DNA from: an uncultured Verrucomicrobiae bacterium
GTDB lineage: Bacteria; Verrucomicrobiota; Verrucomicrobiia; Chthoniobacterales; Chthoniobacteraceae
DNA: 64,000 bases
NCBI GenBank assembly: GCA_963836755.1
Contig: CAWIKF010000001.1
Location: 384,001-448,000, forward strand
Reading direction: 5' to 3'
A model generated the notes under the pieces. The model saw nothing but the letters and a program-made list of their open reading frames with translations, did not search any database and was not told where the DNA came from. Within the stretch, counting starts at the first letter, position 1. Each line of letters begins with the position of its first letter. Shown piece by piece: positions 19,956 to 45,093 of the stretch. A program made the translations under genes and the position numbers.

Positions 19956-19993
19956 ATTTCGCCGCGCCCAACCAAAATCCAACCAACCCAACC

Positions 19994-43966: not shown

Positions 43967-44377
43967 TCAGGCGTTGCGCGGCTCGGTTTTCGTGCGGCGC
44001 AATTCAAAAATGCGCACCAGCACAAACGCGATCAAGGCGATGATGAAAAAAACCAGCAGCACCTCGGCGATGCCTTGCAGCACGTCGATGATCGTCCGGT
44101 AAACTTCCAGAATCCAGCGGTCGCGATTCAACTCCACGATCTCCGCGCCCTTCACCACCGGCTTCGTGATGTATTTCTCGAGATCGTAAATGCGGACGCC
44201 GCTGGAGATGCCGACGACGTAGATCGCGAACATCAAATATTTACGCCATGCGGCAAAAATATCGTCGCCGATGATACGCTTCAGGATTTGATCAACCGGT
44301 TTTTTGAAAGCCGCGGCGACGACGACCGAGACGACCGTCGCGATGAGGAAAGTCACGAGCAGGAGCGTGAGGAACAT
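43967..44377 (-). CDS. Hypothetical membrane protein (three TM helices)
   Basis: Three hydrophobic helices; AWRKYLMFAIYVVGISSG and RWILEVYRT segments. Confidence 0.8.
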   Translation of the reverse strand: MFLTLLLVTFLIATVVSVVVAAAFKKPVDQILKRIIGDDIFAAWRKYLMFAIYVVGISSGVRIYDLEKYITKPVVKGAEIVELNRDRWILEVYRTIIDVLQGIAEVLLVFFIIALIAFVLVRIFELRRTKTEPRNA

Positions 44378-44431: not shown

Positions 44432-44462
44432 AAAAAAAGCCCGATCATTTCTGATCGGGCTT
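44432..44462 (-). terminator. Intrinsic terminator
   Basis: Minus strand reads AAGCCCGATCA-GAAA-TGATCGGGC-TTTTTTT. Confidence 0.9.
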
Positions 44463-44520
44463 GGCCAAGGAACGAGCGTTTAAGTTTTAGTAGTGTTTTA
44501 AGTGTCTTCCAGGCTCGCCT
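44432..44520 (-). ncRNA. Candidate sigma54-dependent small RNA (~88 nt)
   Basis: ORF-less stretch between a -24/-12 promoter and a terminator; 5' GGCGAGC pairs with GCTCGTT around a 35-nt A/C-rich loop. Confidence 0.65.
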
Positions 44521-44529
44521 TCCTTATTT

Positions 44530-44546
44530 AGCAGCCGCCGTGCCAA
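44530..44546 (-). promoter_or_regulatory. Sigma54 (RpoN) -24/-12 promoter
   Basis: Minus strand TTGGCACGGCGGCTGCT compared with consensus YTGGCACG-N4-TTGCW: exact GG-N10-GC spacing and one mismatch. Confidence 0.8.
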
Positions 44547-44640: not shown

Positions 44641-45093
44641 ATGACTTTTCAGGAACGCATCGACAACGATTTGAAGGAGGCGATGAAGGCGAAAAACGCC
44701 GACAAACTCGCCGTCCTCCGCATGTTGAAAGCTGCGCTCAAGAACGCCGCGATCGAGAAAGGCGGCGCCTCCGCGCAGCTCGACGAGGCCGAGGCAGTGG
44801 CAATCGTGCGCAAGCAGGCGAAGCAGCGCCAGGATTCGATCGAAGGCTTTGAGAAAGGTCATCGGCCCGAACTAGCGGAAAAGGAAAAAGAAGAGCTCGC
44901 GTTTTTAAATGAATATCTGCCGCAGCCGCTCGATGCGGAAGCGCTCAGCCAGCTCGTGCGCGAATCGATTGCTGAGGCGGGCGCGACGTCGAAGGCGCAG
45001 ATGGGCGCGGTGATGAAAATCGCCAGCGCGAAGGCGGCCGGACGCGCTGATGGCCGCGCATTGAGCGCGGAAGTCCAGAAGCAGTTGTCTTGA
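44641..45093 (+). CDS. GatB/YqeY domain protein
   Basis: DLKEAMKAK, KQRQDSIE.F, YLPQPL, MGAVMK and GRADG motifs. Confidence 0.93.
   Translation: MTFQERIDNDLKEAMKAKNADKLAVLRMLKAALKNAAIEKGGASAQLDEAEAVAIVRKQAKQRQDSIEGFEKGHRPELAEKEKEELAFLNEYLPQPLDAEALSQLVRESIAEAGATSKAQMGAVMKIASAKAAGRADGRALSAEVQKQLS

Follow-up and report, generated by a model that had tools for sequence, protein, structure and literature searches.

Qrr1-5 of Vibrio are transcribed from sigma-54 promoters, are ~100 nt in length, and occur in 1-5 copies; they need Hfq and a conserved pairing region. CsrB/RsmXYZ and GlmY titrate proteins. CsrB and the Rsm RNAs contain repeated unpaired GGA motifs, and GlmY can reportedly be sigma-54-driven. 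The CrcZ RNA is several hundred nt long and carries several AAnAAnAA motifs. In the available excerpt of PMC5113210, CrcZ and CrcY of Pseudomonas are described as paralogous, A-rich RNAs that depend on RpoN and an activator and sequester a translational repressor, and crcZ is placed after the activator gene cbrB. The excerpt of PMC5568312 describes Pxr of myxobacteria as an RNA of ~100 nt with three stem-loops and a sigma-54 promoter that is located after the activator gene nla19 in an Hfq-free host, with tandem paralogs that have promoters of their own. The FopS family of Bacteroides thetaiotaomicron, which is associated with the RRM protein RbpB, has, in the excerpt of PMC11697453, a promoter of the housekeeping type and a conserved 5' seed that is single-stranded.

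The element analyzed here lies on the minus strand at 44432-44546 of the window, the whole 64-kb stretch of DNA that was analyzed. It belongs to a lineage-specific, multicopy RNA gene family, apparently undescribed so far, of the order that includes Chthoniobacter. The RNA would work most like CrcZ, but it falls outside that group by partner, gene position, and size. At the sequence level the sigma-54 promoter of CrcZ and CrcY is shared by this family; in contrast, its copies have no activator gene as a neighbor, the Hfq partner was not found, and the RNA is ~90 nt long with one loop. Pxr is matched in the sigma-54 promoter, the paralogs, and a host without Hfq, whereas the architecture differs: one helix closes a large open loop that is followed by a terminator, and the copies are dispersed. 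As with FopS and RbpB, the RNA is multicopy (1-4) in a host with RRM proteins; unlike in FopS, the 5' strand is paired and covaries, no conserved seed is found, and the promoter is of the sigma-54 type. Qrr differs in that the loop of the present family is not conserved family-wide and Hfq was not found.

Hfq was detected in 1/150 genomes of the order and not in this genome. The CrcZ and Qrr analogies drawn in a first-pass annotation of this DNA fail where the partner is concerned: the one Hfq-bearing genome has no match to the RNA. That sole Hfq gene (G022:C1:4224347-4224541, plus strand) was possibly acquired laterally. No match was obtained for LSm, and ProQ was found in 0/5 genomes. Membership in the CsrB/RsmXYZ group is contradicted by the single GG(A) of the RNA, which is paired, and by the search of this genome (96% complete) for CsrA, which found none. 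RapZ, the comparison with GlmY, was found in 0/30 RNA-bearing genomes. Neither the cold-shock domain nor Ro60/TROVE was found in this genome, and no Ro60 gene was found among the neighbors of the RNA, in contrast to bacterial Y RNA. A search of the element against Rfam, as the first-pass annotation had proposed, gave no family matches: 0 matches were obtained in the window with Rfam 15 at the gathering threshold, only terminator-type matches (E 0.3-9) appeared for the element in E-value mode, and 10 diverse member loci gave nothing on the element. No description of small-RNA regulation in this order was found in the literature on Verrucomicrobia, Chthoniobacter, Akkermansia, and Udaeobacter, the supplements of which could list the motif. 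The main text of PMC11109978 does not name the phylum.

Promoter, predicted RNA, and terminator at the locus

The features of the locus are listed by their positions in the window.

44530-44546, minus strand: sigma-54 (-24/-12) promoter, assigned from the sequence; the spacing is correct in 45/46 matches of at least 45 bits to an RNA-only model
44432-44519, minus strand: predicted ~88-nt noncoding RNA; 5' end predicted from the spacing of the promoter and 3' end from the position of the U-run
44507-44514, minus strand: 5' strand of helix P1, GCC-U-GGAA, assigned from covariation counts; family consensus AGC-Y-W-GG-R-A
44473-44506, minus strand: 34-nt loop, predicted to be single-stranded, with a 28-nt G-free core; mean unpaired probability 0.82
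44464-44472, minus strand: 3' strand of P1, UUCC-UU-GGC, with the one-base bulge of the family, assigned from covariation
44432-44462, minus strand: intrinsic terminator with a GNRA-type loop and U7; 99% paired across the family
43967-44377, minus strand: downstream 136-aa hydrophobic ORF; no Pfam or NCBIfam match, and not among the recurring neighbors
44641-45093, plus strand: divergent YqeY-like gene (Pfam PF09424) with a likely ATG start at 44641

The sigma-54 site extends from 44546 to 44530 with GG at 44544-43 and GC at 44532-31, and its spacing predicts a +1 near 44519. Both the site and the predicted start had been proposed in the first-pass annotation, and both are borne out by the minus-strand sequence. 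The ~88-nt stretch without a complete ORF that was described there also stands: no ATG occurs within 88 nt after the predicted +1, and an 11-bp GAAA-capped hairpin with U7 terminates at 44432. The presented, G-poor loop was likewise recovered as the 34-nt segment listed above, with the G-free stretch at 44505-44478. G-free runs of at least 26 nt are not rare when taken alone (272 in this genome). The folding z-score is -4.1 and 0/200 shuffles fold equally well, with the terminator supplying most of the energy. Ordinary protein genes of this lineage end in the same style of terminator.

In the 3.18-Mb genome, 47 sites match the strict sigma-54 pattern. Two of these sites were flagged with a terminator-like hairpin within 130 nt, and a real U-run is present only at this locus. 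The combination of promoter and terminator at 44432-44546 is not due to chance, because the association of pattern, terminator, and U-run is unique in the genome and the unit is conserved in relatives. The predicted RNA at 44432-44519 scores 93 bits against the family model R2 described below, and a model search located the element once in this genome (96% complete). Two weak model matches were rejected as paralogs; one is the terminator of a pilin gene and the other is a sigma-54-like promoter followed by a small ORF and a terminator. One DNA contig from sequencing runs spans the element unchanged and possibly represents the source sample itself.

Distribution and conserved structure of the family

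BLAST over 41 genomes provided two relatives in which the element lies beside other genes, and a pattern search over 301 genomes provided three more. Three true members appear among the 119 matches listed from a loose pattern scan of GTDB, and these belong to a Chthoniobacterales bacterium (L140), a Chthoniobacter sp. (L147), and a Verrucomicrobiota bacterium (L065). Model R1 was constructed from seven RNA bodies with the promoter left out and matched 110 places in 63/150 genomes of the taxonomic family. Seventy of the 110 places, mostly the best-scoring ones, were inspected together with L140 and L065. Of the 46 matches of at least 45 bits, 45 are preceded by a correctly spaced -24/-12 site (degenerate in one case); in the remaining match (L205) the site is one base short. 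When the seven seeds are removed, the correctly spaced site, which the R1 model does not contain, is found in 38/39 matches of at least 45 bits. The weaker matches (n = 26) comprise 8 with the site and 18 without it, the latter being mostly ordinary gene terminators.

Model R2 was built from the promoter and RNA of 54 sequences, with members at 43 bits or above and terminators at 38 bits or below. It identified 60 places in 45/150 genomes of the taxonomic family (one copy in 32 genomes, two in 12, and four in 1), a count that omits two rows at 37-38 bits taken as terminators. Across the order, members were found in 16/150 genomes: 4/16 in family f1 plus this genome, 10/15 in f14, and 1/6 in f5. 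R2 members were not found in the other 13 sampled families of the order, nor in ~128 genomes from elsewhere in the class, where the best match was 34 bits; these results are given as "not found" rather than "absent" because many of the genomes are incomplete and weak matches are lost in the filters. Conservation of the promoter/RNA unit in relatives, on which the first-pass annotation had staked its proposal, is thus seen in the 45 genomes, in two further families, and at 62 metagenome loci returned by a pattern for the promoter and helix only. A hairpin followed by a U-run was flagged at 61/62 of these loci without being asked for by the pattern, and many of the loci are closely related. Viral contigs gave 0 matches. 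The element is very probably a real sigma-54-linked RNA gene.

Three further loci were recorded. L205:1535-1645 (plus strand), with the promoter spacer one base short, and L223:1261-1351 (minus strand), an RNA body without a recognizable promoter, are possibly decaying copies. L291:1529-1631 (plus strand), from a member of the class outside the order, has a sigma-54-like site, ~100 nt, and a strong terminator with no P1 motif and is possibly an unrelated sigma-54 sRNA.

The helix P1 is formed by AGC-Y-W-GG-R-A, which is paired with U-Y-CC-N, a one-base bulge, and R-GC-Y. The two parts of P1 are 79% and 87% paired, respectively, in a MAFFT alignment of 54 members, and 83% and 91% paired in a model-fitted alignment of 80 rows that holds 9 nonmembers and leans toward the structure. 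Covariation of the structure, a check named in the first-pass annotation, was found for P1; for the whole structure in the 80-row alignment, 0/500 shuffles reach the observed values, and slid controls are lower. Examples include GGAA/UUCC against GGGA/UCCC and, beside the bulge, A-U against U-G and C-G. The sequence of the P1 core is conserved beyond the requirement for pairing. In 70/70 measured members, 20-24 nt (22 nt in 45) separate the invariant GG of the helix from the C of the -12 element, and this fixed distance places the predicted 5' end at the start of the helix. The single GG in the RNA is paired with a probability of at least 0.8 in 67/70 members. An unpublished genome (G189) was included only in the first six-sequence alignment, and no conclusion depends on it alone.

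A different stem, GGCGAGC/GCUCGUU, had been drawn in the first-pass annotation. This stem can form in the present copy, where its fold is -26.9 kcal/mol against -27.1 kcal/mol for the family fold, but it is not the conserved pairing: as a family fold it is 55% paired and is equaled by 266/500 shuffles. The (G)CUCGUUCCU segment was considered as an anti-SD seed and dropped because it is the covarying 3' strand of P1.

The loop is 18-35 nt long in 71 genome members, with a core composition of 41% A, 29% C, 25% U, and 5% G and a median unpaired probability across the family of 0.76. Its sequence is kept within subfamilies and not between them. The ACACT and CT(T)AAA(A)C repeats reported for this copy are not family-wide, and what is left is a weak A-Y-Y-U-W bias with z ~5 against base shuffles (null maximum 4.4); dinucleotide shuffles reach the AYYUW and ACYU counts in 30/1000 and 163/1000 cases, respectively. 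AUG occurs in 0/31 nonredundant loops, where 5.4 are expected and 0/1000 dinucleotide shuffles are as low, and in 4 of all 133 loops. A small peptide was rejected as the product, with loop lengths distributed over all three frames (18/31/22) and an ATG ahead of the terminator in only 7/71 members.

Gene neighborhood and predicted sigma-54 control

The 136-aa ORF on the same strand starts 55 nt past the terminator. A weak sigma-70-like pair was noted by eye at 44413-44408 and 44389-44384 and is not listed by the promoter scan. On the other side, the yqeY loci of relatives do not contain the element. Neighboring genes, which were called with an in-house hexamer score, are common only within genera or clades and have unrelated functions, and the copies are at unlinked loci. 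The neighbors include DinB, DUF1501, a sulfatase, Ku, MsrA, a single receiver domain, a prolyl oligopeptidase, and TIGR03118. No sigma-54 activator gene was found among 102 flanking ORFs and 13 further recurring neighbors. With no fixed neighbor and no adjoining activator, the element is therefore taken to be a free-standing gene.

An element that acts in cis, either as the leader or attenuator of the gene downstream or as an insulating terminator whose sigma-54 site is silent, would agree with the gene that begins on the same strand at this copy, with the equal energies of its two 5' folds, and with a terminator style that is generic in the lineage. Against it, the first gene downstream is encoded on the opposite strand in 47/71 genome copies (in 22 it is on the same strand, and 2 have none) and in 57/62 metagenome copies, and the neighbors are unrelated between genera. 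Neither of the alternative 5' folds involves the terminator, and the covariation of P1 requires a transcript. No conserved same-strand downstream gene with an antiterminator was found. An attenuator is unlikely because the neighbors are unrelated and mostly convergent, and for the cis element as a whole we see a very small chance. The same counts uphold the stand-alone RNA, as opposed to an attenuator leader, that had been suggested in the first-pass annotation.

This genome encodes RpoN and four full-length receiver-type sigma-54 activators. RpoN is present in 150/150 genomes of the order, as are RRM proteins (each tally contains one unpublished genome, G176), and phylogenetic profiling is uninformative. 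An NtrC box, an activator or IHF site, or a clearly enriched palindrome was found in 0/86 nonredundant upstream regions, in which only an A/T-rich tract near -46 appears. A weight matrix from the family promoters identified 38 other intergenic sites in this genome. The genes behind them are, as we assign them, pilin-type, PilT-like, and receiver proteins, dnaK, and many small ORFs. An ATG is located at +1 to +12 in 18 of the 38 sites, compared with 2-8 in other 12-nt windows, and the sigma-54 regulon seems, from these predicted sites, to be rich in near-leaderless mRNAs.

Several of the sigma-54-like sites open tiny ORFs of 20-47 codons; examples of sites in this genome (G000) are C2:1735185 (plus), C2:209749 (plus), C1:524690 (plus), and C2:2222275 (plus). 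At C2:1471236 (minus) and C2:1340601 (minus), ~40 nt are nearly identical from the promoter into the leader, and the sequence beyond differs.

Other elements were observed near copies in relatives. A phage-type integrase gene (L199:76-1377, minus strand) lies 124 nt downstream of one RNA copy. A compact tRNA-like cloverleaf RNA (L414:1501-1573, minus; L419:1501-1573, plus; L433:1501-1574, plus; and 27 further loci within L415-L443) turned out to be a neighbor that forms a family of its own. It is ~68 nt long with a 6-bp acceptor-like stem, an anticodon-like loop that is mostly CAAUAAA, and a T-like arm. It was found in 43/150 genomes of the taxonomic family (E <= 1e-7) and not in this genome, received no ARAGORN or Rfam call in the loci tested, and is divergent from the sigma-54 RNA in 7/30 loci. 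It is often preceded by TGAAC ~40-45 nt upstream, which resembles an ECF-type promoter. A second tRNA-like element lies beside three copies in G366, and a longer one with a UCA-containing loop, possibly selC-like, lies upstream of another copy (L204:1437-1512, plus; L201:1798-1873, plus; L188:1637-1712, minus; L196:1358-1447, plus); these also received no ARAGORN or Rfam call.

Function of the loop and candidate partners

The reading that we prefer, to which we give an even chance, is a sigma-54-induced RNA that acts as a protein-binding decoy. A signal through one of the NtrC-type activators of the host would turn on transcription. P1 would bury the 5' end and clamp the loop in its open state for a single-strand RNA-binding protein, which the loop, possibly aided by the P1 bulge with its conserved sequence, would bind and titrate. 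Titration would then alter the translation or stability of the mRNA targets of that protein, which is the logic of CrcZ or CsrB with another partner. The candidate partners would be the three RRM proteins of this genome (our first guess), KhpA together with a KhpB-like protein, and the six-domain ribosomal protein bS1, all of which are encoded in this genome. Co-occurrence does not single out the RRM proteins, because they are present in all genomes with or without the RNA.

A binding platform fits better than a pairing seed because the length and sequence of the loop vary, whereas its poverty in G and its openness are kept. The conservation of the P1 core and the varying copy number would also count for a platform, and 1-4 unlinked copies per genome are typical of titrating RNAs. 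Also in favor of the decoy are the promoter at a fixed spacing before matches to the promoter-free model, the covariation of P1, the avoidance of AUG in the loops, the pairing scans in which no partner beat shuffles, the RpoN and RRM proteins of all 150 genomes, and the four full activators of this one. In the excerpt of PMC11697453, the Bacteroides RRM protein binds a paralogous sRNA family at single-stranded regions, a precedent for such binding; that family is described there as carrying a seed for pairing and not as a decoy, which counts against the decoy reading. The short loop, which offers few sites, and the weak loop motif signal also count against it, as do a motif that is neither enriched in G-poor leaders nor shared with sigma-54-regulon leaders beyond composition and upstream regions in which no conserved activator site was found, and the distinct loop sequences of the paralog subfamilies would fit paralog-specific seeds as well.

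A trans-acting base-pairing sRNA like Qrr, Pxr, and FopS has a smaller chance, although a tangible one. The loop, or a strand freed by processing, would pair with mRNAs, chaperoned by an RRM or KH protein, and each paralog would have targets of its own. The size, the terminator, and the sigma-54 control match those of pairing sRNAs, and the loop sequences are conserved within subfamilies. According to the excerpts available, Pxr is a sigma-54-dependent, multicopy sRNA of hosts without Hfq (PMC5568312), and FopS has a seed and binds an RRM protein (PMC11697453). The scans for pairing covered only the start regions and intergenic DNA of one genome. The best duplex of the loop with start regions is -22.8, weaker than the best of 10/12 shuffled loops, and neither strand of P1 stood out from 20 shuffles against start regions or intergenic DNA. 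Of P1-like motifs in other intergenic DNA, 5 were found besides the RNA itself, and none is convincing. An 11-bp match before rpsO was rejected; it falls within a promoter spacer and is not conserved across 28 relatives, of which 2 gave a shuffle p < 0.05 and one gave 0.05. No family-wide seed is seen, and duplexes from a G-poor loop are weak. The pairing seed offered in the first-pass annotation was not found in these scans, where no partner beat the shuffled controls.

The loop could also serve as a sponge that sequesters a G/U-rich sRNA whose normal targets for repression are C/A-rich leaders, in the way that AgvB and SroC act on GcvB. A weak Rfam likeness to AgvB (E = 1) points in this direction, but it consists mostly of the terminator and an A/C run. 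The longest intergenic complement of the loop is 12 bp, compared with 11-17 bp in 30 shuffles. A scan for a G/U-rich partner that ends in a terminator gave one candidate, and Rfam gave nothing in the window. A sponge is highly improbable.

A further reading is a decoy leader for the translation-initiation machinery. The loop would mimic the leaders of highly expressed genes and bind bS1 or the 30S subunit, with translation shifting toward near-leaderless mRNAs, which are frequent in the predicted sigma-54 regulon. Leaderless translation is not known to need bS1, which favors this proposal. No SD signal is seen in this genome (164 against 146 in the control, 1871 starts), and many of its genes have G-poor A/C/U leaders. 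Those recognizable from the sequence include, by our assignment, tuf, gap, rplK, glnA, and pilins, which we take to be highly expressed. SD-scarce Verrucomicrobia are reported in the excerpt of PMC10783764. The avoidance of AUG by the loops and the ATG near the start at 18/38 of the sigma-54-like sites also agree with such a decoy, but AUG avoidance is expected of any open noncoding loop in an SD-less host. The abundance of bS1 and ribosomes, both very high, is a further objection. The first-pass annotation had likened the loop to the leaders at 19971-19993 and upstream of 51074. These leaders are A/C-rich and the likeness holds for composition, but it does not go beyond composition: the 4-mer correlation of loop and leaders is 0.17 (p 0.12), the loop motif is not enriched in the G-poor leaders of this genome (z -0.4 and 0.8), and words shared with leaders in general or with sigma-54, pilin, or PEP-CTERM leaders are not above composition. 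A comparison of sigma-54-regulon leaders with the loop motif gave p 0.2-0.6. No target site is identified, since the likeness does not extend to words. We consider the initiation decoy improbable.

A broader form, in which the RNA is an AUG-free decoy leader that is induced by sigma-54 and soaks up a reader of G-poor leaders (bS1/30S or an RRM protein), is doubtful, though a shade less so. If it were true, translation would tilt from leadered housekeeping mRNAs to near-leaderless ones, which account for roughly half of the sigma-54 regulon as predicted. A small RNA would then reprogram translation globally, a mode for which no description was found.

The genomes of the order are without the usual sRNA helpers, as far as Hfq, ProQ, CsrA, and RapZ were tested. 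With its defined promoter and structure and its 1-4 copies, the conserved family is bait for the alternative RNA-binding protein of the phylum, and it can mark the sigma-54 regulon in Verrucomicrobiota, which are widespread and mostly uncultured. Should the loop titrate a factor that reads leaders, the family would show global control of translation in bacteria without Shine-Dalgarno signals.
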